A stretch of 64,000 bases of DNA from Bacteroidia bacterium (GCA_030654175.1 JAURXZ010000024.1:171730-235729), one strand, 5' to 3'. Shown: positions 1,886 to 15,113, counted from the first letter of the stretch. The notes: generated by a model not told the origin, from the sequence alone. Translations and numbers: made by a program.

Positions 1886-4366
1886 TTAAATCTCAAATCC
1901 CCACTCTTCATCAAATTTTTTACCTGGAGTAGGTGGTTTTTTAGGAACTTCTTTTTTAACTATTGGAGTAGGGGCTTCAAATTTCTCTTCCATTTTGAAA
2001 AGAGGTTTTTTTTCGGATGCTTTTTGTTTTACGCCTCTTCCTTTGCCTTTTTTCTGAAATGATTCTTTTTTCTGAAACGATTCTTTCTGGAATGATTCCT
2101 TTTTTGGAAATGATTCTTTTTTCTGGAAGGATCCTTTTTTCTCAAATGATTCCTTCGAAAAAGAAGAATTTCTTGGTTTCTCTTCAGTTACTTCAACCAA
2201 TGCAAAATCCAACTGTTTACGCACTAGATCAGCACGCTTCACTTCAATTCTAACCGTATCGCCAAGTGTTAGTACTTTACCATATTTACGGCCACGCAAA
2301 CAATAATTATCTTCATCAAAGAAATAATTATCATCACGCAAGTCTCTTAAGCGTATCATCCCTTCACAGTGATTTTCTATGATCTCAACAAAAATGCCCC
2401 ACTCTGTAACACCGGATATTTTACCGTCATATTCTACCCCAATCTTATCAATTAAAAATTGAACCTGTTTGTATTTAATAGAAGCGCGTTCAGCGTCTGC
2501 TGCCAGTTTTTCCATATCGGAAGAATGTTTACACAGCTCCTCTAATTTATCGATATCGGGATTTTTTCCGCCATCTAAATAATGTTGCAATAAACGATGC
2601 ACCATCACATCGGGATACCTACGGATAGGGGATGTAAAATGGGTATAATATTCGAAGCCCAAACCGTAATGGCCAATGTTTTTTGTAGTGTATATCGCCT
2701 TTGCCATTGTACGAATGGCAAGCAGTTCGATCATTCCGGCTTCTTTTTTCTCATTTACTTCTTTCAATAAATTATTTAATGAATCGGCAACTGATTTCTC
2801 ATTTTTGATATTTAATTTGTATCCGAACTTACCTACAAACTCAGCAAAAGTAGCCAGTTTATCAGGGTTTGGTTTATCATGGATACGATATACAAATGGT
2901 TTTTTTGTATCCTGGCTTTTGGCTCCTGCTGCATTGTGTCCTTTCACTTTACCAATAAATTCAGCCACTTTACGGTTTGCCAACAACATAAAATCTTCGA
3001 TCAACTGATTGGAATCTTTTGCTGTTTTAAAAAACACACCTGTTGGATTTCCTGCTTCATCCAAATGAAATTTCACTTCCATTTTTTCAAAAGCAATACT
3101 TCCTTTTCTAAAACGATTGGCGCGTAATATTTTTGCCAAACGATCGAGCGTTAACACTTCATCACAAAAATCACCTTCTTCGGTTTCAATGATCAGCTGT
3201 GCGTCTTCGTATGTAAAGCGTTTGTCAGAATTAATTATGGTTCTTCCGATCCATTCATTTACCACTTCGGCATCATCGGTCATTTCAAATACTGCCGAAA
3301 AACATAATTTTTCCTCATTAGGACGCAGTGAACAAACATTGTTTGATAATACTTCCGGAAGCATCGGAACCACCCTATCCACTAAATAAACAGAGGTAGC
3401 GCGTGAAATGGCTTCCTGATCTATCATAGAGTTGGGTTTTACATAATGGCTCACATCGGCAATGTGTACACCAATTTCCCAGTTTCCGTTGTCTAATTTC
3501 TGGATGGAAAGCGCATCGTCAAAATCTTTTGCATCCACAGGGTCGATCGTAAAAGTGGTGATCTCGCGGAAGTCTCGTCTTTTGGCAATCTCCTCTTCAG
3601 TGATCGCTATCGGAACAAGGTCGGCCGCACGTTCCACATCTTTTGGGAATTCGTAAGGCAAACCAAACTCTGCGAGTATCGCGTGCATTTCAGTGTTGTT
3701 CTCACCAACATTACCCAACACTTCAATGATCTCACCAATAGGATTTACGCCATTCTTAGGCCATTCAGTAATTTTGGCAATGGCTTTTTGCCCGTCCTTA
3801 GCGCCATTCAATTTATCCAGTGGAATATAAATATCCACATTTGCTTTATTGCTGCTCGGCACCAGAAAAGCAAAACGTGGCGAAAGCTGTATCACTCCTA
3901 CAAATTTAATCCGTGCACGATCGAGCACCTCCACAATTTCACCTTCTTGTTTCTCTTTTCGTTTTGGATATAAAAGCACCTTCACCGTATCACCATGCAT
4001 GGCATTAAGTGTTTTGGTTGGGGTAACCAATACATCGTTCTCTGTTTCTTCCGATACAATATACGCGGTTCCGCTGGCGGTCATTTCCACACGCCCGGTA
4101 ATGTATTGTTTGGTTGATTTTATCAGGAATTTACCACGTTCGGGCTCTGATACCGAACCGCTGTTTTTTAATTCTGATAAGATGGTATTTATTAATATAC
4201 GCTGGGATTGGTCGGTAACATTGAGTTCCGCAGCAATTTGTTTATAGTTGAGCGACTTGCCGGAATGTTTAGATAATACTTTTAATATTTCTTCGAAAAA
4301 AAAACCTTTGTTCTTTTTCTGTACAGTATCTTTTCCGGGAGTGTTTCTTTTGAATTTTTTTGTCAT
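1886..4366 (-). CDS. rnr: Ribonuclease R
   Basis: RNB motifs TIDPVDAKDFDDA, HIADVS, HYGLG..YTHFTSPIRRYPD; N-terminal HTH/cold-shock region and C-terminal S1 domain. Confidence 0.97.
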   Translation of the reverse strand: MTKKFKRNTPGKDTVQKKNKGFFFEEILKVLSKHSGKSLNYKQIAAELNVTDQSQRILINTILSELKNSGSVSEPERGKFLIKSTKQYITGRVEMTASGTAYIVSEETENDVLVTPTKTLNAMHGDTVKVLLYPKRKEKQEGEIVEVLDRARIKFVGVIQLSPRFAFLVPSSNKANVDIYIPLDKLNGAKDGQKAIAKITEWPKNGVNPIGEIIEVLGNVGENNTEMHAILAEFGLPYEFPKDVERAADLVPIAITEEEIAKRRDFREITTFTIDPVDAKDFDDALSIQKLDNGNWEIGVHIADVSHYVKPNSMIDQEAISRATSVYLVDRVVPMLPEVLSNNVCSLRPNEEKLCFSAVFEMTDDAEVVNEWIGRTIINSDKRFTYEDAQLIIETEEGDFCDEVLTLDRLAKILRANRFRKGSIAFEKMEVKFHLDEAGNPTGVFFKTAKDSNQLIEDFMLLANRKVAEFIGKVKGHNAAGAKSQDTKKPFVYRIHDKPNPDKLATFAEFVGKFGYKLNIKNEKSVADSLNNLLKEVNEKKEAGMIELLAIRTMAKAIYTTKNIGHYGLGFEYYTHFTSPIRRYPDVMVHRLLQHYLDGGKNPDIDKLEELCKHSSDMEKLAADAERASIKYKQVQFLIDKIGVEYDGKISGVTEWGIFVEIIENHCEGMIRLRDLRDDNYFFDEDNYCLRGRKYGKVLTLGDTVRIEVKRADLVRKQLDFALVEVTEEKPRNSSFSKESFEKKGSFQKKESFPKKESFQKESFQKKESFQKKGKGRGVKQKASEKKPLFKMEEKFEAPTPIVKKEVPKKPPTPGKKFDEEWGFEI
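2049..2165 (-). repeat. Coding tandem repeat (15-18 bp unit, KESFQK) in the rnr C-terminal tail
   Basis: SFSKESFEKKGSFQKKESFPKKESFQKESFQKKESFQKK; recurring tgattc(c/t)ttt on + strand. Confidence 0.9.
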
Positions 4367-4370
4367 AGAA

Positions 4371-4378
4371 CAAATATA
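4371..4378 (-). promoter_or_regulatory. Bacteroidota primary-sigma -7 box for rnr
   Basis: TATATTTG on - strand, 4 nt before the ATG; matches TAnnTTTG. Confidence 0.6.
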
Positions 4379-4538
4379 ACTTATTTAAAATAATTTAACA
4401 ATTTAAGAGAATGCAATTATACAGTAGCAATGTTCAATAATTAGCAATTTAATGATCAATGTGGTTTAGTTAAGCACAATTTCGTAAATTCGTCATGCAT
4501 CATTATCCTGCAGCTCATAAAAAAATAAAAAATTGTGA

Positions 4539-4566
4539 TGCAACCAAATAATGCAAATTGACATCT
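4539..4566 (+). promoter_or_regulatory. Putative ECF-type autoregulatory promoter
   Basis: TGCAACC-N16-CATCT just upstream of the ECF sigma ATG at 4585; AAC in -35 is typical of ECF promoters. Confidence 0.45.
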
Positions 4567-4584
4567 TCTACACAGAAAGCAAAA

Positions 4585-5109
4585 ATGACTGATGAGCAAA
4601 TAGTAAAAGGGTGCATTGAAAAAAATCCGATCGCCCAAAAGTATCTATACGATAAGTTTGCCCGAAAAATGATGGGGGTTTGCCTGCGTTATTGCGACAG
4701 CCAAGAGGAAGGCGAAGATGTTCTTCAAATGGGTTTTATCACTGTTTTTGAACACTTAAATTCATTTAAAGGAACAGGGTCATTTGAAGGGTGGATCAGA
4801 AAAATAATGGTGAATACGGCCCTTACCAATATTAGAAAAAATAAAAAATTCAAACAAAATGTAGCCATGGATAGCGTAGAATTTATGCTGCCATCTACGA
4901 ATCATATTGCAGAAAATTTTGCAGCCAACGACCTGTTAAAAATCATACAAACTTTGCCAACAGGATTCAGAACTGTTTTTAATTTATATGCCATTGAAGG
5001 TTATTCTCATAAGGAGATTGGAGATCTTTTAAATATTTCGGAAGGAACATCTAAATCACAATATTCGAGAGCAAAGGCCCATTTACAAAAAATAATACCA
5101 AACAGATAG
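4585..5109 (+). CDS. ECF RNA polymerase sigma factor
   Basis: Region 2 EDVLQMGF..GSFEGWIRKIMVN; region 4 LPTGFRTVFNLYAIEGYSHKEIGDLLNISEGTSKSQYSRAK; ATG 4585 preferred to TTG 4558. Confidence 0.95.
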   Translation: MTDEQIVKGCIEKNPIAQKYLYDKFARKMMGVCLRYCDSQEEGEDVLQMGFITVFEHLNSFKGTGSFEGWIRKIMVNTALTNIRKNKKFKQNVAMDSVEFMLPSTNHIAENFAANDLLKIIQTLPTGFRTVFNLYAIEGYSHKEIGDLLNISEGTSKSQYSRAKAHLQKIIPNR

Positions 5110-5122
5110 AGAGGGAGAGAAC

Positions 5123-6103
5123 ATGAAAAATGACGATATAGACGATCTATTCAAAAAATCATTCGAAAACTACGAAGCAGAGGTTAATCCAAGTGTTTGG
5201 AAGAACATTCGCATAGGACTTAAATGGGGCGGCTTGGCCCTTTTATTCAATACACTTTTACATAAGATCGGCTTCGGTACTATTATTGCAATTCTTTCAT
5301 CGGCAGTAATAATCAGCACGGTTGCGATCTTAAACAAAAAAAACAAATCGGATGATGTAACGCAAAACACCAAAATTGAAACGCAGTTACCACCGGCAAT
5401 TATTGAAAAACCGGCTTCTGTATTGGATACCACTCAGGAACAAAAGGCAGAGAACGGGAAACCTCTTTCGGAGGGTAAAAATAATAGCACAGAAAAAACA
5501 GCGTTACCAGCAAATACAATTGTTGAATCATCAAAAAAAGACAATAAAAAAATAGAGTCGGTTATAAATAAATTCTCTAAAGAGCCCATCGCTTCTATAT
5601 CGGCAAGCCCTGTTGGAGGAACGGCACCTCTGATAGTTGACCTTTCGAATACAGGATCGGGTAAAACAAATAAGTGGACCTACAGCGATGGTAAAAAGGA
5701 TAAATCCACATCAAATCCAGTTCATGTATTTGAAACACCGGGTATTTATTCCGTTATCCTCACTTCCACCAACGACAAAGGAGAAACAGCCATAGACAGC
5801 ATTAAAGTAGAGGTTACAGGCAATTCGTCCATATCATCCATTCCAAAAGATTTTTCTCCAAATGGTGATGGTGTATTGGATGTATTTGTTTTTCAAACGA
5901 AGAACATTGCTAAAATGAATGCCAAAATTTTTGATGAGAAAGGCACTGTTGTTTATACCTCTGAAAGTACAGATGCTAAGTGGGATGGGAAAGATCTGCA
6001 AGGTAATGATGCAAAAGAAGGGATCTATTTTTACATAATAAATGCCGAAGGTGTGGATGGTAAAAAATATGAGCCTAAAGGGTCAATAAATCTTACGAGA
6101 TAA
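5123..6103 (+). CDS. Putative anti-sigma factor: N-terminal helix, TM, polar linker, PKD domain, T9SS type B (CHU_C) C-terminal domain
   Basis: 13 bp after ECF sigma; DDLFKKSFENYEAEVNPSVWKNI; hydrophobic segment; PKD GTAPLIVDL..W..SDG..NPVHVF..PG.Y; CTD IPKDFSPNGDGVLDVF..WDG..EGIYFY..KGSINLTR. Confidence 0.8.
   Translation: MKNDDIDDLFKKSFENYEAEVNPSVWKNIRIGLKWGGLALLFNTLLHKIGFGTIIAILSSAVIISTVAILNKKNKSDDVTQNTKIETQLPPAIIEKPASVLDTTQEQKAENGKPLSEGKNNSTEKTALPANTIVESSKKDNKKIESVINKFSKEPIASISASPVGGTAPLIVDLSNTGSGKTNKWTYSDGKKDKSTSNPVHVFETPGIYSVILTSTNDKGETAIDSIKVEVTGNSSISSIPKDFSPNGDGVLDVFVFQTKNIAKMNAKIFDEKGTVVYTSESTDAKWDGKDLQGNDAKEGIYFYIINAEGVDGKKYEPKGSINLTR
6001..6103 (+). repeat. Direct repeat copy 1 (3' end of anti-sigma-like gene)
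   Basis: aggtaatgatgcaaaagaagggatctattt...cctaaagggtcaataaa recurs at 10008..10109. Confidence 0.95.
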
Positions 6104-6113
6104 TCGGAGGTGC

Positions 6114-6233
6114 AATAGAGCGCAGATGATGCAGGTTTTTGCCGTCAATTAAGATTATATCTGTGCGAAACAGAAAACTTTTCTTGTTTTTTTCCCTGTT
6201 TATCATAACAATCTGCGTTATCTGCGTTCCATT
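6114..6233. repeat. Degenerate 9-bp-period inverted-repeat element
   Basis: gcgcagatgatgcaggtt ... aatctgcgttatctgcgttc. Confidence 0.55.
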
Positions 6234-6395
6234 TATTTTTCAAATTGTTAGGATCATTAAAGATTTTTTATCTGTACGCAAAATAATTTTTTCTAACGTA
6301 TGAATTCATTTCCCGATGTGAATTATAGTTTAATGTCTGCAACTATTTTGTTTATTGTTACATTCGCTCTTACCAATTAATTAGCTTTGTAGCGT

Positions 6396-9300
6396 ATGAT
6401 GAAAAAAATAGTTCCCCTCATTCTTGTCATTATTAGTTTGTTTATAAAAAATGTAACTGCCCAGGGAACGGACTGCGCCACTGCCAGTCCATTTTGTACT
6501 GCTTCAGGAGCAGCAACTTTCCCGGCACAACAAAACACACAGGCTCCCATAGGTCCCAACTATGGCTGTTTGGGTTCTCAACCAAATCCTGCCTGGTTTT
6601 ATCTGCAAATTGCAACAGCCGGTAACATTGTATTAGACATGAATAACTCCGCAGTTGTTGATATTGATTTTATCTGTTGGGGACCATTCACAACCCCTGC
6701 CGCAGGCTGTTCCTCCGGATTAACAGGCGCAGAAATTGATTGTAGCTATGCGTCAGATCCAAACGAAACCTGCAACATACCGAACGCTTTGGTTGGCCAA
6801 GTTTATATTTTATTAATAACCAATTATTCAAATGATCCAACCACAATTACTCTTGCTCAAAACGGGGGCACAGGAGCCACAAGTTGTGGTATTTTGTGTG
6901 GAATGACTGCCTTAACTGCTGTTCCGGACGTTTGTGCAAGCGCTAACAACATTTTTAATGTGTCAGGAAGCGTAACGTATACGAGTCCACCGGCAACCGG
7001 AATATTAACGATTTCAAATAGTTGTTCTGGCGCCACACAAGTCATTAATGCGCCTTTTAACGCGACATCTACCGGTTATACCCTAACTGGTCTTCCTGCT
7101 AATGGTGATACTTGCATTGTAACTGCTCAGTTTTCAGCTACTGACCCTAATTGTAAACTTACTCAAAACTTTATAGCTCCCCATCCAGTGGGTTTTTCTT
7201 TTTCTTCTGTGACCAATGTGCTTTGCTTTGGAAATACTACAGGAAGTGCCACTATTAATGTTTTAGATGGAGTCCCTCCTTACACTTATTCATGGAGCCC
7301 ATCAGGACAAACTGATTCTACAGCCACAGGACTTGCTGCAGGAACACATACGGTTGTTGTAACTGATAGTATTGGCTGTTCATATCCCAACACCATAACT
7401 ATAACAACAGCTCCTCAACTCACTACTTCTTTCACTTCTGTTACAAACGTGAGTTGCCTTGGAGACAATGACGGTAGTGCTTCTGCGAGTGTTTCCGGGG
7501 GAATACCGGTATACACTTATTTATGGAGTAACTCGCAAACGTCACAAACCGCTACAAACCTCGTAGCGGGAACCTATACCCTAACTGTAACTGATTCTGC
7601 AGGTTGTTCGCATTTGGATTCGGTAACCATAACGTCACCTCTACTACTCAGTCATTCTTTCTTACCTTTCACCAATGTGAGTTGTGCGGGAGGGAATAAC
7701 GGCAGCGCCACTATCAATGTTTCCGGAGGAACGTTCCCCTATACCTACTTGTGGAGCAACTCGCAAACCACACAAACAGCAACAGGTCTTGCCGCAGCAA
7801 GCTATACAATTGTTGTTACTGATGCGCACTCTTGTTCTTTTACAGATTCAGTTACAATAACGGCTCCTCTTCCTTTAATACATTCTTTTTCAGGGATCGC
7901 AAATATTGATTGTTTTGGTAACCCTGTAGGCGCAGCAACGGTGGATCCTTCAGGAGGAACACCTCCTTATGCTTATTCATGGAACAGCATTCCGGTTCAA
8001 ACTACTCAGACCGCATCAACTCTTTATGGAGGTGTTTTTAAAGTTACTGTTACTGACTCCCTTGGATGTTCATTTATTGATTCTGTTTTTATCACTACGC
8101 CTACCGGACTTGGTGTTTTTTCTCCATTAATTACAAATGTGCATTGTTTTGGGGACAGCAGCGGTGCAGCTACCATAACGCCTTTTGGCGGAACTCCGGG
8201 ATATACTTACCTGTGGAACCCGGGTGGTCAGACGGATTCAATAGTATCAGGGCTTCCGGCAGGAATTGACACCATTAGAATCACGGACAGCTTTGGATGT
8301 TTAATTAAAACTTATGTTCAGATCACAGAACCAACTTTACTTACTTCCACACCAAGCCAGTTAAATATTCTTTGCTTTGGCGACAGCTCAGGTTCTGCCG
8401 GAGTTTTGGTAGCAGGCGGGAGTACACCGTATACTTATTCATGGACCCCTTCTGTTGGAACAACAGCAGTTGTTACGGGTTTACCTGCCGGTAATTATTC
8501 TTTGCTGATCACCGACTCACTAGGATGTACTCTTTCTCCTTCTTTCACACTAACACAACCTGCAAGTCCTCTTTCGGTACTAAGTTCTTTTGTGGATGTT
8601 TTATGCAATCCTGACAGCACTGGGTCTGCTGCAATTGTTGTATCCGGTGGCACTCCGGGCTATTCATATTTGTGGAGCAATGGACAAACGGATTCAACAA
8701 TTTCAACTGTTCCGGCAGGAAATTATACTGTTATGATCACAGATTCGGTAGGCTGCCTGGATAGCTCTGCAATAACTATTAGTGAACCACCATTACTTAC
8801 ATTTACCTCCAGCCAGATAAATGTTCTTTGTTTTGGCGACAGCTCAGGAACTGCATCAGTATTGGTATCTGGCGGAACTCTTCCTTATACCTTTTTGTGG
8901 AATCCCATCGCTACCGACACCGCAACCCTCACCGGTTTACCTGCGGGAATCGATTCTGTTTTGATCACAGATGCTCATGGATGCCAGTTATCTTCTTCTT
9001 TCATAATCACACAGCCGGCTCTTCCTCTTTCCCTGGCAAGTAGTTTTGTGAATGTTTTATGTAATCCCGATAGCACTGGATCGGCATCAGTTATTGTAAC
9101 GGGAGGCACTTCGGGATATAGCTATTTATGGAGCAGCGGACAAACTACCTCAGGCATTTCATCCCTTCCGGCAGGCAATTATTCTGTGATGGTTACAGAT
9201 ACTAACGGTTGTTTGGATAGTTCAGCAATAATATTAACTCAACCGCCACCATTCACAACCACCATTACAGCTGACACAAGCATTTGCGAAGGGATGAGTA

Positions 9301-10001
9301 TAACGGAAGATATTTTTGCTGCCGGAGGCGTTCCGGTTTATTCTTATTTATGGTTGCCCGGAGGTACAACTTCAGCTTCAATTACGAGTACTCCAATAGC
9401 AAATACTACTTACACTGTTCAGGTTTCAGATGCTAATGGTTGCTCACCGGGTTTGCTGAATACAACAGTAACTGTGGTTCCTATTCCTGTTGCAGCTATT
9501 TCTGTTACGCCCAGTATTGTCGTTTTTTTTCCGCAAACAATTTGCTTCACTGCCGATAGCATCAATACAAGCTCGTTGTTATGGAACTTTGGAGATAACT
9601 CAATAGATTCAGTGAATTCCGTATGTCATTCTTTTCCCGGGGGAGGAACATATTGTGTCACTCTTCTGGAAACAAACACACTTGGTTGCCGCGATTCAGC
9701 AGAGGTATGTGTTGTAGAGGTTGAGGTACTTATTCCGAATGTATTCTCGCCAAATGGGGATGGTTTGAACGATATGTTTTTCATAGATATGGAAGTGGAT
9801 GGAATAACGTATTATAAATGCGAGATCTACGACCGCTGGGGACTTAAAATGGATGAACTCGTGAGGGCGAAGCAAGGCTGGTCGGGACATACAACCGCAG
9901 GATTAACAGCCTCTGAAGGGACTTATTACTTTGTGCTATCCATTGAATGGGGAAGTACCTTGAGTATCCACAAAGAAGGGTTCATTACATTGGTAAGATA
10001 A
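6396..10001 (+). CDS. SprB-repeat surface protein with PKD and T9SS type B sorting domain
   Basis: Signal peptide, Cys-rich N-domain, about nine SprB-like units (NVxCxG..GGTxPYxYxW..LxAGxY..TDxxGC), PKD (WNFGD), CTD IPNVFSPNGDGLND..IYDRWG..EGTYYF..GFITLVR. Confidence 0.93.
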   Translation: MMKKIVPLILVIISLFIKNVTAQGTDCATASPFCTASGAATFPAQQNTQAPIGPNYGCLGSQPNPAWFYLQIATAGNIVLDMNNSAVVDIDFICWGPFTTPAAGCSSGLTGAEIDCSYASDPNETCNIPNALVGQVYILLITNYSNDPTTITLAQNGGTGATSCGILCGMTALTAVPDVCASANNIFNVSGSVTYTSPPATGILTISNSCSGATQVINAPFNATSTGYTLTGLPANGDTCIVTAQFSATDPNCKLTQNFIAPHPVGFSFSSVTNVLCFGNTTGSATINVLDGVPPYTYSWSPSGQTDSTATGLAAGTHTVVVTDSIGCSYPNTITITTAPQLTTSFTSVTNVSCLGDNDGSASASVSGGIPVYTYLWSNSQTSQTATNLVAGTYTLTVTDSAGCSHLDSVTITSPLLLSHSFLPFTNVSCAGGNNGSATINVSGGTFPYTYLWSNSQTTQTATGLAAASYTIVVTDAHSCSFTDSVTITAPLPLIHSFSGIANIDCFGNPVGAATVDPSGGTPPYAYSWNSIPVQTTQTASTLYGGVFKVTVTDSLGCSFIDSVFITTPTGLGVFSPLITNVHCFGDSSGAATITPFGGTPGYTYLWNPGGQTDSIVSGLPAGIDTIRITDSFGCLIKTYVQITEPTLLTSTPSQLNILCFGDSSGSAGVLVAGGSTPYTYSWTPSVGTTAVVTGLPAGNYSLLITDSLGCTLSPSFTLTQPASPLSVLSSFVDVLCNPDSTGSAAIVVSGGTPGYSYLWSNGQTDSTISTVPAGNYTVMITDSVGCLDSSAITISEPPLLTFTSSQINVLCFGDSSGTASVLVSGGTLPYTFLWNPIATDTATLTGLPAGIDSVLITDAHGCQLSSSFIITQPALPLSLASSFVNVLCNPDSTGSASVIVTGGTSGYSYLWSSGQTTSGISSLPAGNYSVMVTDTNGCLDSSAIILTQPPPFTTTITADTSICEGMSITEDIFAAGGVPVYSYLWLPGGTTSASITSTPIANTTYTVQVSDANGCSPGLLNTTVTVVPIPVAAISVTPSIVVFFPQTICFTADSINTSSLLWNFGDNSIDSVNSVCHSFPGGGTYCVTLLETNTLGCRDSAEVCVVEVEVLIPNVFSPNGDGLNDMFFIDMEVDGITYYKCEIYDRWGLKMDELVRAKQGWSGHTTAGLTASEGTYYFVLSIEWGSTLSIHKEGFITLVR

Positions 10002-10007
10002 TTATAC

Positions 10008-10109
10008 AGGTAATGATGCAAAAGAAGGGATCTATTTTACATTATAGATACCGAAGGTAAGGATGGTAAAAAATATGAACCTAAAGGGTCAATAAAATTT
10101 ACTAGATAG
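10008..10109 (+). pseudogene. Orphan frameshifted copy of the last ~33 codons of the anti-sigma-like gene (direct repeat copy 2)
   Basis: By hand, 10 substitutions and a 1-bp deletion against 6001..6103. Confidence 0.85.
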
Positions 10110-10121
10110 GTTGGTAATTTA

Positions 10122-10216
10122 TTTGGGCGTTCACCTTTCTTAAAGAAGAAAGGGTCGGGCTTTCCACTTCAATCTTTTCTAAACAGAAAAGGATTTACGT
10201 TGCAATCCCTAACGCA
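10122..10216 (+). repeat. ~95-bp structured interspersed repeat, Flavo-1-RNA-like, copy 1
   Basis: ttgggcgtt..gggtcgggctttccacttcaatcttttct..agaaaaggatttacgttgcaatccctaacgca; homologs at 24810 and 35027. Flavo-1 label is from memory of the motif. Confidence 0.7.
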
Positions 10217-10248
10217 ATCCGTTAACAATGAAAATTATCGGGTTCGAA

Positions 10249-12036
10249 TTACATCCTCTCCGGAACATCAATTCCCAATAACTGCATCGACTCTTTAATG
10301 GCACTTCCAACGGTTTTCGATAAGTGTAAACGGAATAAGATCAGATCTTTTTGTTCTTCTTTTAAGATGGAAACATCGTGATAATACTGACTGAATTCTT
10401 TCGCCAGATCATATATATAATTAGCGATCAATGCAGGGCTGTATTCCGCAGCAGCCTGGTTTAAAGTAGTGTTGAAACTATACAATTTAATGATCAGTTC
10501 TTTTTCTTTGGTTAGCAAATTAGCGGGAGATGAGAACGAATCGGTAAACTCAAACCCGGACAGATCCTTGGCTTTGCGCAGCAATGCCTGTATCCTTACA
10601 TAGTTAAATTGGATGAAAGGGGCGGTATTTCCATTAAAATCGATAGATTCGGCAGGGTTGAAAAGCATTTTCTTTTTCGGGTCCACTTTCAGCATAAAAT
10701 ATTTTAATGCCCCCAAACCTATTGTACGATATAATTTTTCAGCATCTTCGTTACTCAGGTCTGTTGCTTTCCCAAGCTCTTTGGAAGTTACAGCAGCGGT
10801 ATCGATCATCTCCTGCATTAATTCATCAGCGTCAACAACAGTTCCTTCCCGCGATTTCATTTTACCTTCCGGCAACTCCACCATTCCGTATGACAAATGA
10901 TATAAACCCTCGGCCCATTTGTAACCCAGCTTACTTAGTATGAGAAACAATACTTTAAAATGATAATCCTGCTCATTGGCAACTGTGTAGATCAATTTAT
11001 CAAAATGCTCTTCTTCGGCACGCTGAACAGCTGTTCCAAGATCCTGCGTCATATATACAGAAGTACCATCAGCACGTAACAATGTTTTTTCATCTAAACC
11101 ATCGGCAGTCAGATCAATGTAAACCGAATTGTCTGCCCTGCGTTTTAAAATATTTTTTGCCAACCCTACTTCAATGATATTTTTACCGAATAAATACGTT
11201 TGGCTTTCGTAGTAGATTATATCGAAATCAACGCCCAGCATTTTGTAAGTAGACTCAAAGCCCTTGTATACCCAGCTATTCATCATACCCCAAAGTTCCA
11301 TGGTATCTTTATCAGCGGCTTCCCATTTGAAAAGCATTTGCTGTGCTTCCTGCATCAATGGAGCTTGCTTTTCGGCATCCTCCTTTGTTTTCCCTTGTTT
11401 AACAAGGTTTGCAATTTCCTCTTTATAATGCTTATCGAATTCTACATAGTATTTACCAACTAAATGATCGCCCTTAATACCAGTAGATTCAGGTGTTTCG
11501 CCATTACCCCATTTTTGCCAGGCCAACATGGATTTGCAAATATGAATGCCACGGTCATTTACAATGTTTGTTTTTATTACTTTGTTTCCTGCTGCTTTTA
11601 AGATCTCAGAAACTGAATAGCCCAATAAATTGTTACGGACATGGCCAAGGTGCAGTGGTTTATTGGTGTTTGGTGAGGAATATTCAACCATCACGGTTGG
11701 AGCGTCTGCCGGTAATATTGCATTAATAAAAGGCTTTCCATTGATCGACTTAAAATAATTCAACCAAAAAGAATCAGCAATAACAATATTTAAAAACCCT
11801 TTTATTACATTAAAATCAGCTACTTCGGGTACATTTATTTTAAGAAAATTTCCAATTTCGGTAGCGGTTTCTTCCGGTTTCTTTTTTGAAATTTTCAGGA
11901 AATTAAAAACCACTAACGTAAGGTCTCCTTCAAAATCAGGATTTGTTTTTTCGAAAACAATTTTTTCTATCGCAGCGCCATAAAGCGATTGCAAGGCTTC
12001 AATTGTTTTTTCAGAAAGTTTTTTTTCAATGTTCAT
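10249..12036 (-). CDS. argS: Arginine--tRNA ligase
   Basis: VEYSSPNTNKPLHLGH (HIGH), GKMKSREG, FNGNTAPFIQ, C-terminal LLGIDVPERM; ATG 12036. Confidence 0.97.
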   Translation of the reverse strand: MNIEKKLSEKTIEALQSLYGAAIEKIVFEKTNPDFEGDLTLVVFNFLKISKKKPEETATEIGNFLKINVPEVADFNVIKGFLNIVIADSFWLNYFKSINGKPFINAILPADAPTVMVEYSSPNTNKPLHLGHVRNNLLGYSVSEILKAAGNKVIKTNIVNDRGIHICKSMLAWQKWGNGETPESTGIKGDHLVGKYYVEFDKHYKEEIANLVKQGKTKEDAEKQAPLMQEAQQMLFKWEAADKDTMELWGMMNSWVYKGFESTYKMLGVDFDIIYYESQTYLFGKNIIEVGLAKNILKRRADNSVYIDLTADGLDEKTLLRADGTSVYMTQDLGTAVQRAEEEHFDKLIYTVANEQDYHFKVLFLILSKLGYKWAEGLYHLSYGMVELPEGKMKSREGTVVDADELMQEMIDTAAVTSKELGKATDLSNEDAEKLYRTIGLGALKYFMLKVDPKKKMLFNPAESIDFNGNTAPFIQFNYVRIQALLRKAKDLSGFEFTDSFSSPANLLTKEKELIIKLYSFNTTLNQAAAEYSPALIANYIYDLAKEFSQYYHDVSILKEEQKDLILFRLHLSKTVGSAIKESMQLLGIDVPERM

Positions 12037-12172
12037 AAAAGGCAATTTTAACAATTTAGCAATTTGACAACAGGCAATTAAACAAACGTAACGGTTCTAA
12101 TTTAACAATTCGACAATAGGCAATAAACAACAAACTACAAATGACCGATGACCAATGACCAATGAACCAACT

Positions 12173-12871
12173 TCAAAACAAACCTTCATCCGCAAAGCTA
12201 TAAAAACCATTGTCGGTAATTATCAAATGGTCGAGTAAAGGTATTTCCATTATTTTACCTGCCTCTTTTATATTTTTAGTGATCTTTATATCAGCATCGC
12301 TTGGCTTCAAATTTCCCGAAGGGTGATTATGGCAAATAATGATAGAGCTGGCATGGTTTCCGATAGCTGTTTTAAAAATTATCTTAGTATCCACTACAGT
12401 TCCCGAAACCCCTCCCCGACTTATTAATTCTTTTTTTATCACTAAATTGGCCCTGTTCAGCATTATCAACCAAAATTCTTCGTGAGGCAGATCCATCATG
12501 GATGGTTTCATAATTTCAAAAGCATCCTTGCTTGTAATAATTTTTTCGCGCTTAACTGTCTCGGTTTCTTTTCTTCTTCTGCCTAGTTCTAAAGCTGCGA
12601 TTATGCTTATTGCTTTTGCATCACCTATACCTTTAAATTGATTCAATTCTTGTACGGTAAGCTTTCCTAAATTATTCAGGTTATTATCCACACTCAGCAA
12701 TATGCGCTTAGAAAGCTCTACCGCTGTTTCATCCTTGCTGCCCGAACCAATTAAGATCGCGATCAGTTCTGCTTCGGTGAGCATGTGCCGGCCTTTATCC
12801 AATAGCTTTTCGCGAGGACGATCTTCTTCTGCCCAGGATTTTATGCCTACTGATGGTTTATAGTCTGCCAT
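12173..12871 (-). CDS. radC: RadC (JAB-domain) protein
   Basis: DRPREKL, HhH FKGIGDAKA, CHNHPSGNLKPSDAD, LLDHLII. Confidence 0.95.
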   Translation of the reverse strand: MADYKPSVGIKSWAEEDRPREKLLDKGRHMLTEAELIAILIGSGSKDETAVELSKRILLSVDNNLNNLGKLTVQELNQFKGIGDAKAISIIAALELGRRRKETETVKREKIITSKDAFEIMKPSMMDLPHEEFWLIMLNRANLVIKKELISRGGVSGTVVDTKIIFKTAIGNHASSIIICHNHPSGNLKPSDADIKITKNIKEAGKIMEIPLLDHLIITDNGFYSFADEGLF

Positions 12872-13123: not shown

Positions 13124-13465
13124 TTATTTTTTTGTTGCTTTTTTTGGTGCAGCTGCTTTTTTTGCAACCGGTTCTTTTTTTGCAACTACTTTAGGTTCTG
13201 CTTTTACAACTGTTACTAAAGCATTAACTCTTTTGGTTAATTTTGATTTCAAATTAGCAGCTTTATTCTTGTGAATAACGTTTTTCTTTGCCAATTTATC
13301 AACCATTGCAACAACTTTAGGAAGTTTTTCTTTTGCAGATGCTACAACTTCATCTGTTCTTAGATCCTTAACTGCATTACGCATTGTTTTTGCCTGGTAA
13401 CGATTTGTTAATCTTTTAGCATCGTTAGAACGGATTCTTTTGATACTCGATTTGTGATTTGCCAT
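13124..13465 (-). CDS. rpsT: 30S ribosomal protein S20 with Lys/Ala-rich tail
   Basis: [25 protein letters not shown]. Confidence 0.97.
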
Positions 13466-13874: not shown

Positions 13875-15113
13875 TTGTTCTCTTCAGAGCTATATTGCAA
13901 AACAAAGAGTAAAAAATTGAAAAAACTTATAGATAAAATAATAAATACCGGAGTTAGAGCCGATTACCTGCCTTGGGAAACACATCTCACAAGAAAACTG
14001 AATTTAGTAGCATTAATGGCAATGCCAAATTTTATCCTGGTAATTGGATTTTTTGAAATTATAGGCTACTCCCAATTTCTTTTGGATTGTTATTTTGCTG
14101 TAATTGCCTTGTGTATAGTGCCAGTAATGAATGGTTTCAAAAATTACTTATGGGCAGCGTATTGGTTTTTTTGTTACGGATTTTTCTTTTTCTTTTTCAT
14201 CAACCTGAAAGAAGGCAAGGAATCTTACATGATCTTATTTTATTTCCCTGTGATCATAAGTATGGTTCAACTTTTGGGGCGAAGAGAAACATTTAAACAT
14301 CTTATTGTTTTAGGCGGCATCTGTTTGCTTTCTATTATTGCAATTTTAATTGGATTTAAACTTCAACTGTTCCAGGTATATTTAAACGATGAAATTATCA
14401 ATAACCTGATCATTTTAAATATTTTAGTCAGTTTATTATCTACGCTCGCTTTTATGCTGGCAGTGGCATTGGAGTCCATAAAGCAGGAAAGCCTGATTGA
14501 AAAAATGTTCAAAGAAAAAGAAATTTTACTTGCAGAAGTTTTTCACCGTGTAAAAAACAATATGAACATTGTTACAAGTCTATTAAATTTAAAAAAAAAT
14601 ATGTCCGATTCACATGAGGTACAAACGGCACTTGAAGATTGTCGTGGCCGTGTATATGCAATGGCTTTGGTGCATCACAACATATTTACAAACAACAATA
14701 CCATTGGTTTGAATTTTAAAGATTATGTAAATAGCCTGGTAACAGAAATAACGAACTCCTTAGGTGATAAAGATGAGGTTGAAATTCTTTTGGAAACAGA
14801 AGATGTTAACCTGGAATTATCAAATGCAATACCCTGTGGATTAATTTTAAATGAATTAATTACAAACTCCTTTAAATATGGACAATCGGAAAACAAAAAA
14901 CTGTTGATCCATGTTAAATTGAAAAAAAACAAGAATACAATTGAGCTTGAAGTGAAAGATAATGGTCCGGGGTTTTCGGATGAAGCCCTTCAAAAAACAA
15001 ACACATTAGGCATTGAACTGATCAAATCTTTATCAGAACAGATTGGCGGAGCACACACCTTTGGTAATGATACCGGACTGGTTTTTAATCTTACGTTCAA
15101 ACAGGCTTCTTAA
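13875..15113 (+). CDS. Multi-TM sensor histidine kinase, HisKA_2 type
   Basis: About 6 TM helices; EVFHRVKNN, PCGLILNELITNSFKY, DNGPG, LGIELI; start may be TTG 13917. Confidence 0.9.
   Translation: MFSSELYCKTKSKKLKKLIDKIINTGVRADYLPWETHLTRKLNLVALMAMPNFILVIGFFEIIGYSQFLLDCYFAVIALCIVPVMNGFKNYLWAAYWFFCYGFFFFFFINLKEGKESYMILFYFPVIISMVQLLGRRETFKHLIVLGGICLLSIIAILIGFKLQLFQVYLNDEIINNLIILNILVSLLSTLAFMLAVALESIKQESLIEKMFKEKEILLAEVFHRVKNNMNIVTSLLNLKKNMSDSHEVQTALEDCRGRVYAMALVHHNIFTNNNTIGLNFKDYVNSLVTEITNSLGDKDEVEILLETEDVNLELSNAIPCGLILNELITNSFKYGQSENKKLLIHVKLKKNKNTIELEVKDNGPGFSDEALQKTNTLGIELIKSLSEQIGGAHTFGNDTGLVFNLTFKQAS

Follow-up and report, generated by a model that had tools for sequence, protein, structure and literature searches.

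The gene directly downstream of a small ECF sigma factor gene in this Bacteroidia bacterium looks like a real anti-sigma factor: its binding to the sigma factor is predicted in silico, and its periplasmic end resembles the type B cargo of the T9SS. The window (the whole stretch of DNA analyzed) is 64,000 nt long, and all positions are counted from its first nucleotide (Table 1). An earlier note on this DNA had described an ECF sigma gene followed 13 bp on by a gene with a TM segment, a PKD domain and a CHU_C domain, and all of these features were found again in place.

Table 1. Positions of the features at the ECF sigma locus in the window, with the main evidence for each.
Feature	Position	Strand	Evidence or remark
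ECF-type promoter, predicted autoregulatory	4538..4566	+	-35 TGCAACC 4539-4545, 16-nt spacer, -10 CATCT 4562-4566
ECF sigma factor gene, 174 aa	4585..5109	+	Sigma70_r2, r4_2, TIGR02937
Candidate anti-sigma factor gene, 326 aa, cargo-like periplasmic end	5123..6103	+	241-match family; sigma gene 5' in 66/66 loci
N-domain, residues 1-35, predicted cytoplasmic and sigma-binding	5123..5227	+	Invariant residues; complex model
Single TM helix, residues 49-70	5267..5332	+	19-residue Kyte-Doolittle mean 2.33
Polar variable linker, residues 71-155, 85 aa	5333..5587	+	74% polar or charged
PKD domain, residues 158-229	5594..5809	+	PF18911 38.1 bits, PF00801 32.4 bits
CHU_C / type B T9SS C-terminal domain, residues 240-323	5840..6091	+	PF13585 61.7 bits (cut-off 27)
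Intergenic gap, last ~100 nt conserved, with TAGCTTTG box (TAnnTTTG-like)	6104..6395	+	Sequence comparison
SprB-repeat adhesin-like type B cargo, 1201 aa	6396..10001	+	Frequent, not constant neighbor

The ECF sigma factor and its anti-sigma candidate

The sigma gene product belongs to the group IV ECF sigma-70 factors: it has regions 2 and 4 only (Pfam Sigma70_r2, 51.4 bits; r4_2, 54.1 bits), it scores 92 bits against NCBIfam TIGR02937 (cut-off 42.9), and its length falls within about 170-200 aa. The sigma partners of Dma proteins are classed as ECF21; for the present sigma factor the nearest curated NCBIfam model is NF058625, at 68 bits with a cut-off of 130. Orthologues begin with MTDEQIV, which places the true start at ATG 4585; TTG 4558 was rejected as a start on the same ground. 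Sigma identity is 68-86% across the aligned PKD-CHU_C loci, 55% at one further locus (L061) and 39-43% at loci where the partner ends in a barrel. The genome encodes two paralogous sigma factors (47% and 42% identical), and these sigma/partner pairs were located via the sigma search and not via the N-domain profile; neither partner has a Pfam match. By eye, the upstream regions of the paralogous sigma genes are unlike the TGCAACC-N16-CATCT promoter region.

The sigma stop and the start of the anti-sigma candidate are 13 nt apart. Adjacency alone would be weak grounds for pairing them, because the genome contains 99 CHU_C domains above the cut-off. The pairing exceeds chance: the full-length architecture of the candidate is that of a conserved family (241 matches at E<=0.001), and in 66/66 related loci the sigma gene lies directly 5' and co-oriented, a few bases away or overlapping. 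That the candidate is no more than a small T9SS cargo of the usual kind, with an odd uncleaved signal anchor and placed next to the sigma gene by chance or shared regulation, is very improbable. Neighbors of this kind would be common given so many CHU_C domains, and no classical anti-sigma domain (ZAS, RskA, FecR etc.) was detected in the candidate at E<=0.01 in Pfam and NCBIfam; but the pair is kept in every one of the 66 loci, the N-terminal 35 residues are more conserved than any other part of the protein outside its recognized domains, the modeled complex with the sigma factor stands far above its controls (see below), and the same N-domain is carried by barrel-ended proteins of Dma architecture.

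The family alignment shows F10, K11, S13, F14, E18, V21, W26, N28, and K34 of the N-domain to be invariant. When the N-domain was modeled in complex with the sigma factor, three runs scored 0.71, 0.70, and 0.72, compared with 0.00 for the best of three controls; at least 89% of the contacts were common to the runs, and the partner pLDDT was at least 68. Among solved complexes 116 of 157 attain the mark used for this score, among mismatched pairs 2 of 215. The N-domain is predicted to sit between sigma regions 2 and 4, with its residues 6-33 in contact with sigma residues 13-56 and 112-171. The anti-sigma identity proposed earlier is thus borne out in silico by strict pairing, a conserved N-domain and predicted binding to both sigma regions. 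Part of the complex score may reflect likeness to solved sigma/anti-sigma complexes.

Residues 1-30 of the candidate contain no hydrophobic stretch (best 12-residue Kyte-Doolittle mean -0.54), and no cleavable N-terminal Sec signal peptide was found there by hydropathy. The sole strongly hydrophobic segment begins near residue 49, behind the conserved domain, in agreement with the TM segment lacking a classical signal peptide that had been described before. Two K/R residues precede this helix and four follow it, and the positive-inside rule does not favor an N-in orientation. The polar linker, given earlier as ~90 aa, has nearly that length; it is poorly conserved except for its last ~15 residues (KKDKKKIxSVI-like) and is of low confidence in the full-length AlphaFold model, which is poor overall (mean pLDDT 47.5) and reaches 66-83 in the PKD and C-terminal domains alone.

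The N-domain profile matched 1783 cluster representatives. Pfam scanning covered 108 of the best 150 matches, i.e., those of at least 230 aa; 25 of these proteins end in CHU_C, 40 end in an OMP beta-barrel, 3 contain PKD only, and 40 had no match. The candidate itself has no Pfam match to OMP_b-brl, and PKD and CHU_C are found in its place. A profile built from the first 76 columns of the alignment detected no second copy of the N-domain in the genome at E<=10. Among 200 other genomes sampled from the phylum, the N-domain profile gave 7 matches at E<=1e-6, each lying within an open frame of 250-620 aa and not one in the 326-aa form; because the profile is narrow, this sample says little on the spread of the design.

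A promoter motif and the predicted cargo regulon

The -10 element of the putative autoregulatory promoter ends 18 nt 5' of the sigma ATG, and TGCAACC-N16-CATCT is found upstream of the sigma gene in 64/66 related loci at >=15 bits. A weight-matrix scan of the genome yielded 29 matches at >=17 bits, 15 of them promoter-positioned. Twelve of these 15 precede CHU_C genes or operons with the own operon included (11/14 non-self), on a comparison base of 99 CHU_C ORFs among 3583 crude genes. With each of eight column-permuted matrices, 0-2 positioned matches were obtained and none before CHU_C. The large predicted targets that were scanned are all CHU_C proteins (10/10), nine of them with PKD domains, and one further predicted target bears a type A tag; the top-scoring genomic site lies before apaG, which is not cargo. 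A strict promoter regex returned 16 genomic matches, about the chance number estimated by hand, and only the weight matrix with gene context and permuted controls is an informative scan.

Nine other genomes were examined as well. In five more distant ones, 14 of 21 non-self matches precede CHU_C genes and one more runs off the analyzed stretch; the reversed motif gave 2 matches there vs 25 for the forward motif. Four genomes of the same genus contain seven non-self matches, of which two are clearly before CHU_C, one weakly so, one not, and three at contig ends. The recurrence of the motif before CHU_C genes in this and nine other genomes agrees with the link from the switch to T9SS type B cargo that the earlier note had drawn. 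A regulon of T9SS type B cargo is predicted from this promoter motif, a prediction against which the two paralogous sigma factors of the genome have to be weighed.

The same note had taken the next gene for an SprB-repeat protein with a type B CTD and for a possible target of the switch. The first part stands: the product has a signal peptide, nine SprB-repeat stretches, a PKD domain and a CHU_C domain (57.7 bits), and its TIGR04131 score of 43 bits is over the cut-off. The second part was not supported, since no ECF-type site lies between the anti-sigma candidate and the downstream gene in the 66 loci, the adhesin gene has its own conserved upstream box (Table 1), and a same-strand CHU_C gene follows the candidate in 28/56 usable loci and is absent in the closest relative (L001). 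TGCAACT-N15-ACATTC upstream of the adhesin gene was rejected as a candidate site (<8 bits; -35 lost in L003 and L004). No terminator-like hairpin was found on the + strand of the intergenic gap, and a sigma-70 promoter scan of 4300-10300 was uninformative (15 sites vs 16.4 expected).

The C-terminal tag and comparison with known systems

The CHU_C domain of the anti-sigma candidate ends three residues before the C-terminus, and its score with the type B model TIGR04131 is marginally below the cut-off (34.6 vs 35). The PKD domain and CTD (residues 151-326) can be aligned over their whole length with cargo proteins, at the very C-termini of these and with 26-40% identity, and this cassette resembles the final ~170 residues of T9SS cargo made by the same cell. 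In 39 other CHU_C domains of the genome, 26 columns show conservation of 60% or more; the tag retains 21 of them, but near-universal residues are changed: the N of GDGxND to L and the RW of NRWG to EK. The loss of N and RW is consistent across the anti-sigma family, whose consensus at the NRWG position is IFDKKG. The tag had been called a complete type B CTD; it is full-length and protein-terminal, but the term has to be qualified in view of the three near-universal columns that are changed. According to the part of PMC12618676 available, each of five conserved type B motifs (A-E) is required for secretion of a SprB tag, and according to that of PMC9143113 PorP-like barrels bind type B tags, which remain bound. 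The missing RW residues would allow for a non-secreted role of the tag.

One such role, which we judge quite unlikely, is that the C-terminal domain has been repurposed as an Ig-like periplasmic sensor that is never handled by the T9SS. Its ligand could be, e.g., unexported cargo, the periplasmic face of the shuttle or a protease, and it might signal a blockage of export, much as RseA/DegS signal unassembled porins. The family-wide residue losses, the TIGR04131 score just under the cut-off, the lack of a signal peptide and a membrane anchor that should block full export would all suit such a sensor; however, most consensus columns are kept, the domain lies at the exact C-terminus behind PKD as in real cargo, and making more cargo while export is jammed would be counter-productive.

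The candidate is similar to Dma anti-sigma factors in that its gene is next to that of a small Bacteroidota ECF sigma factor (PMC10927553; PMC13088901, in the parts available), and in its N-terminal sigma-binding region of ~40 aa (predicted for the candidate), which is followed by one helix in the inner membrane and a periplasmic tether that is disordered (PMC10927553). The same part of PMC10927553 describes that the first 40 residues of Dma1 pull down its sigma factor, and its authors propose that outer-membrane perturbation or external stimuli are sensed, followed by proteolysis. Dma ends in an 8-stranded outer-membrane barrel and its regulon consists of vesiculation genes, whereas PKD and a type B T9SS domain are found here and the predicted targets are T9SS cargo (PMC10927553, as far as available). 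The tether is also shorter, 85 aa vs ~170-250 residues from helix to barrel in the barrel forms seen. Barrel-type loci (L062-L066) likewise lie 3' of a related ECF sigma gene with the same kind of promoter, and the barrel-type relatives have no NCBIfam name. The N-domain also heads barrel proteins of Dma architecture, and therefore 5123-6103 is, judged by architecture and through these relatives, a T9SS-tag variant of a Dma-type anti-sigma factor. The earlier note knew of no characterized example of such a protein; the Dma family is a characterized relative (PMC10927553, in part), while our literature searches turned up no description of a T9SS sorting domain on an anti-sigma factor.

This kinship bears on a further explanation, to our mind unlikely though less so than the Ig-like sensor: the protein could sense the state of the envelope as Dma does, its tag being no more than an outer-membrane anchor on a PorP/SprF-type barrel, and form a two-membrane tether whose signal is, e.g., outer-membrane damage, surface contact or adhesin load and not secretion capacity. 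The shared N-domain, the stimuli proposed for Dma1 (PMC10927553) and the lasting binding of type B tags to PorP-like barrels (PMC9143113) are in its favor, each source being available in part. It leaves the heavy content of same-tag cargo in the predicted regulon unexplained, and the linker is short for a tether of the barrel kind.

The anti-sigma candidate may also be compared with three better-known regulators. FlgM inhibits FliA, a sigma factor that controls the late substrates of an export machine, and bears the signal for export by that machine; it is soluble and exported whole. The likeness lies in the logic, and the present candidate differs in its predicted inner-membrane anchor and has no sequence relationship to FlgM. 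Because of this anchor, release of the sigma factor would need cleavage. In the RseA/DegS/RseP pathway of sigma E, the PDZ domain of DegS reads porin C-termini. The candidate is similar to RseA as a single-pass anti-sigma factor that is probably subject to stepwise proteolysis (RIP proteases are discussed in PMC10927553, in the part available), but its N-domain is unrelated and its sensor would be a copy of the cargo signal on the anti-sigma factor itself. In the PorA/PorXY-SigP system of P. gingivalis, too, a T9SS CTD protein informs an ECF sigma pathway about the secretion system (PMC7712824, in part; see also PMC12152298). PorA is described in PMC7712824, as far as available, as free cargo with a type A tag that acts through a two-component kinase on T9SS component genes, whereas here the anti-sigma factor carries the tag in its own chain and cargo genes are the predicted targets.

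A possible coupling of cargo synthesis to export

The genome encodes SprA, two GldM, 23 PorP/SprF-family genes and an RseP homologue (237.6 bits); none of the PorP/SprF genes adjoins the locus, and the closest match on the contig is ~30 kb off. The end of the inhibitor copies the cargo tag and the predicted targets are such cargo, which suggests that cargo synthesis may be tied to the exporter. We therefore put forward tentatively, with a confidence that stops a little short of probable, a self-activating ECF/anti-sigma pair in which a cargo-like end engaged by the T9SS gates cargo genes by free export capacity; all links in this mechanism are computational. The N-domain would hold the sigma factor on the cytoplasmic side, a single helix would span the inner membrane, and the 85-aa flexible linker would present the PKD and type B domains in the periplasm. 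There the cargo-like end could be recognized by the type B route, i.e., the SprA translocon and a PorP/SprF-type outer-membrane shuttle, and the anti-sigma factor would thereby be tied to the outer membrane at the place of Dma's own barrel. Engagement, or pull on the tether, might expose the linker to cleavage, which an RseP-type protease could complete to free the sigma factor. Cargo genes would be expressed while the exporter has capacity to spare and turned down once cargo competes for that capacity. That the anti-sigma factor is outright a tethered decoy cargo, whose PKD-CTD is grabbed and whose linker is cleaved so that dozens of adhesins are gated by export capacity, seems doubtful to us. 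We infer a coupling of the switch to secretion, and its weakest steps would be the direction of control and the translocation of the C-terminal domain at all.

To our knowledge, the means by which Bacteroidota adjust T9SS cargo synthesis to secretion capacity are poorly understood. The main known case is PorXY-SigP-PorA of P. gingivalis, which controls components of the machine. If true, the mechanism proposed here would be a direct link, within one polypeptide, from the type B export route to the transcription of type B cargo in a genome that carries about a hundred type B proteins. It would also widen the Dma class: in these anti-sigma factors, which span the envelope, a secretion tag can apparently take the place of the barrel at the outer-membrane end. 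Such an exchange suggests that what is sensed is how that end fares at the outer membrane. For this switch, the promoter motif supplies a concrete, testable regulon.

Gene order and the probable sigma/anti-sigma pair

Three plus-strand genes sit between the minus-strand genes for RNase R and arginyl-tRNA synthetase, and the domain scores and coordinates (see table) match the order described in the earlier note, namely an ECF sigma, a membrane protein with polar linker, PKD domain and CHU_C tag (the type B T9SS C-terminal domain), and an SprB-repeat adhesin. In the second protein, a hydrophobicity check found no hydrophobic stretch in residues 1-30, and the sole strongly hydrophobic segment is residues 49-70. 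The linker has 85 residues (74% polar or charged), the PKD domain covers residues 158-229, and the CHU_C domain covers residues 240-323 with 61.7 bits against a cut-off of 27; the NCBIfam type B model scored below its cut-off (34.6 vs 35). The gap between this gene and the adhesin gene is 292 nt.

Features of the locus and of related stretches (window positions unless a contig or locus is named)
Feature	Position	Strand	Remarks
RNase R	1886-4366	-	flanks the trio on one side
ECF-type promoter	4539-4566		
Promoter spacer	4539-4561		
ECF sigma factor gene	4585-5109	+	174 aa; regions 2 and 4 found
Anti-sigma candidate	5123-6103	+	326 aa; begins 13 nt past the sigma stop
KKDKKKIxSVI-like stretch	5537-5572		anti-sigma residues 139-150
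Adhesin	6396-10001	+	1201 aa; signal peptide, nine SprB-repeat stretches, PKD, CHU_C
Arginyl-tRNA synthetase	10249-12054	-	flanks the trio on the other side
RadC	12173-12871	-	no evident link to the system
Ribosomal protein S20	13124-13465	-	no evident link to the system
HWE/HisKA_2 histidine kinase	13875-15113	+	no evident link to the system
Top-scoring motif copy of the genome	C27:126487 (L067:278-673)		190 nt upstream of apaG (DUF525), not secretion cargo
Small ORF after motif	L068:207-638		
Small ORF after motif	L069:227-619		
Small ORF after motif	L151		
Small ORFs after motif	L122, L127, L128, L129, L135, L137		first gene past motif
Paralogous sigma and partner	C6:70363-72311 (L094)		
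Paralogous sigma and partner	C16:455307-456618 (L095)		

The full-length family of the 326-aa protein comprises 241 matches at E<=0.001, nearly all unnamed or labelled 'gliding motility-associated'. When 21 members were aligned, the first ~70 residues, the PKD domain and the C-terminal domain were conserved and the linker was variable, except for a KKDKKKIxSVI-like stretch at its end which is conserved across the family and is a candidate cleavage or docking site. The earlier note had also called for a survey of such gene pairs; scanning one genome per species gave 66 loci, every one of which has an ECF sigma gene immediately before the candidate in the same orientation, either overlapping it or separated from it by a few bases. 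Sigma identity is 68-86% across the PKD-CHU_C loci of the sigma alignment, with one outlier (L061) at 55%. A same-strand CHU_C gene comes next downstream in only 28 of the 56 loci with enough downstream sequence, and a minus-strand gene in 21, including the closest relative, so the adhesin is a frequent neighbour outside the conserved core.

Modelling of the N-domain (residues 1-35) with the sigma, likewise proposed in that note, used the sigma and anti-sigma residues 1-48, each as an alignment. Three runs scored 0.71, 0.70 and 0.72 against 0.00 in the best of three controls, with at least 89% of contacts in agreement and a partner pLDDT of at least 68; in the calibration of the method, 116 of 157 solved complexes scored this high, as did 2 of 215 mismatched pairs. 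The predicted contacts join anti-sigma residues 6-33 to sigma residues 13-56 (region 2) and 112-171 (region 4). Contact with regions 2 and 4 is the usual grip of an anti-sigma factor on an ECF sigma. Resemblance to solved sigma/anti-sigma complexes may have contributed to the score, and the model supports binding as a prediction. Since the sigma partner is cytoplasmic, the N-terminus should be inside and the PKD-CTD part periplasmic, although the positive-inside rule is neutral to slightly contrary to this orientation (two K/R before the helix, four after). We concluded that the two genes very likely encode a sigma factor and its anti-sigma factor.

Relatives ending in an outer-membrane barrel

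A profile of the N-terminal 75 residues matched 1783 cluster representatives at E<=0.001, and the matched region is nearly always the extreme N-terminus. Among the best 150 matches, the 108 of at least 230 aa were scanned with Pfam: CHU_C is the last domain in 25 (mostly together with PKD), PKD stands alone in 3, an OMP beta-barrel domain closes 40 and the other 40 gave no match. Five Flavobacteriaceae loci (L062-L066) carry the barrel form behind a related ECF sigma. In four barrel-ended relatives (P0145, P0150, P0160 and P0178), 4-6 tandem N-domain motifs of ~35 aa precede the membrane helix, an arrangement which suggests anti-sigma factors with several sigma-binding sites.

PMC10927553 describes Dma1 of B. 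thetaiotaomicron (WP_008766767.1), annotated OMP_b-brl_2: behind the N-terminal region come a single inner-membrane helix, a long disordered segment and, last, a barrel in the outer membrane; the first 40 residues pull down the ECF21 sigma Das1, and Dma1 fragments point to proteolytic control. In architecture, the anti-sigma studied here has all of these parts except the barrel. One rival to a secretion sensor is a Dma-like sensor in which the tag is purely an anchor. No published account of an anti-sigma factor bearing a T9SS sorting domain turned up in literature searches, and the closest precedents are the Dma family and PorA-PorXY-SigP (PMC7712824).

Only seven ECF sigmas were found in the genome, and the two closest to the window sigma are 47% and 42% identical. 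Behind them lie membrane proteins of 463 and 253 aa that show the N-domain motif in looser form and gave no Pfam match; the 463-aa partner may be the Dma-like protein of this genome.

ECF-type promoter and predicted regulon

A conserved ECF-type promoter, TGCAACC-N16-(G)CATCT, is found some 45 nt ahead of the sigma start codon, and the motif reaches at least 15 bits ahead of the sigma gene in 64 of the 66 loci, barrel-type loci among them. The spacer, too, is conserved and contains a second TGCAAC copy, 15 bases past the first (TGCAACCAAATAATGCAAC), which might serve as a second -35 register or be bound by a different regulator.

For the genome scan, we used the matrix restricted to its -35 and -10 boxes, with a threshold of at least 17 bits. 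Fifteen of the 29 matches are in promoter position. Twelve of these, one of them at the system's own operon, stand ahead of CHU_C genes, either directly or with a small ORF in between, against a background of 99 CHU_C ORFs in 3583 crude genes. With eight column-permuted matrices, matches in promoter position numbered 0-2, none of them before CHU_C. One further target bears a type A tag, and the remaining two are apaG and an unknown protein of 116 aa. Two more matches, misfiled by the crude gene model, are also ahead of CHU_C genes. All ten large targets scanned are CHU_C proteins, nine with PKD domains. Five genomes with an anti-sigma 45-61% identical gave 25 matches vs 2 for the backwards-read pattern; of 21 non-self matches, 14 are before CHU_C, 6 are not and 1 has its target cut by the end of the retrieved sequence. 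In four same-genus genomes all seven non-self matches are ahead of signal-peptide genes (CHU_C clear in 2, weak in 1, cut by a contig end in 3, and 1 not CHU_C). The motif is best assigned to the window sigma, as we infer from the small number of ECF sigmas and from the different-looking upstream regions of the two closest paralogs. A regulon of secretion cargo is probable.

Both here and in other genomes, a small ORF (120-160 aa, with a signal peptide) is often found between the ECF-type promoter and the giant CHU_C gene behind it. No Pfam match was found in the three scanned; such ORFs may represent a conserved family that partners these adhesins.

The earlier note suggested the neighbouring SprB adhesin as the target of the switch, which the promoter data do not bear out: the stretch separating the anti-sigma gene from its downstream neighbour lacks an ECF-type site in all 66 loci. 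The last ~100 bases ahead of the adhesin, conserved among close relatives, include TAG[C/A]TTTG, in agreement with the TAnnTTTG box that PMC9723704 gives for the primary sigma of flavobacteria. Read-through into the adhesin is possible, since the gap holds no terminator-like hairpin and in one locus (L017) the corresponding gap is only 15 nt.

The cargo-like end and a possible link to secretion

Over their whole length, anti-sigma residues 151-326 can be aligned with the final ~170 residues of many of the genome's cargo proteins (26-40% identity), and the match extends to the cargo C-terminus every time. An ordinary cargo protein that happens to lie beside a sigma gene is the least likely reading, given the constant pairing and the predicted binding. 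The tag retains 21 of 26 consensus columns. It has lost the N of GDGxND and the RW of NRWG, and both changes are family-wide, the family consensus at NRWG reading IFDKKG. According to PMC12618676, five conserved motifs of the SprB tag are each needed for secretion, so the anti-sigma tag may be recognised yet treated differently, or never exported. A rival reading, in which the end is a repurposed periplasmic binding domain, would suit these replacements, and the retained columns speak for a tag.

The genome encodes SprA (2611 bits), two GldM, an RseP homologue and 23 PorP/SprF-family genes; no gene of this last family adjoins the locus. PMC9143113 reports that type B tags bind to PorP-like barrels of the outer membrane. 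We favour a model in which the anti-sigma is a tethered decoy. The type B route would capture its cargo-like end and so anchor the protein at the outer membrane, the place taken by the barrel in Dma proteins, and capture would lead to linker cleavage and sigma release. Coupling through T9SS engagement of the tag, the sensing of secretion status suggested earlier, is a tentative reading, somewhat short of even odds; if it holds, expression of the cargo genes would follow free export capacity.
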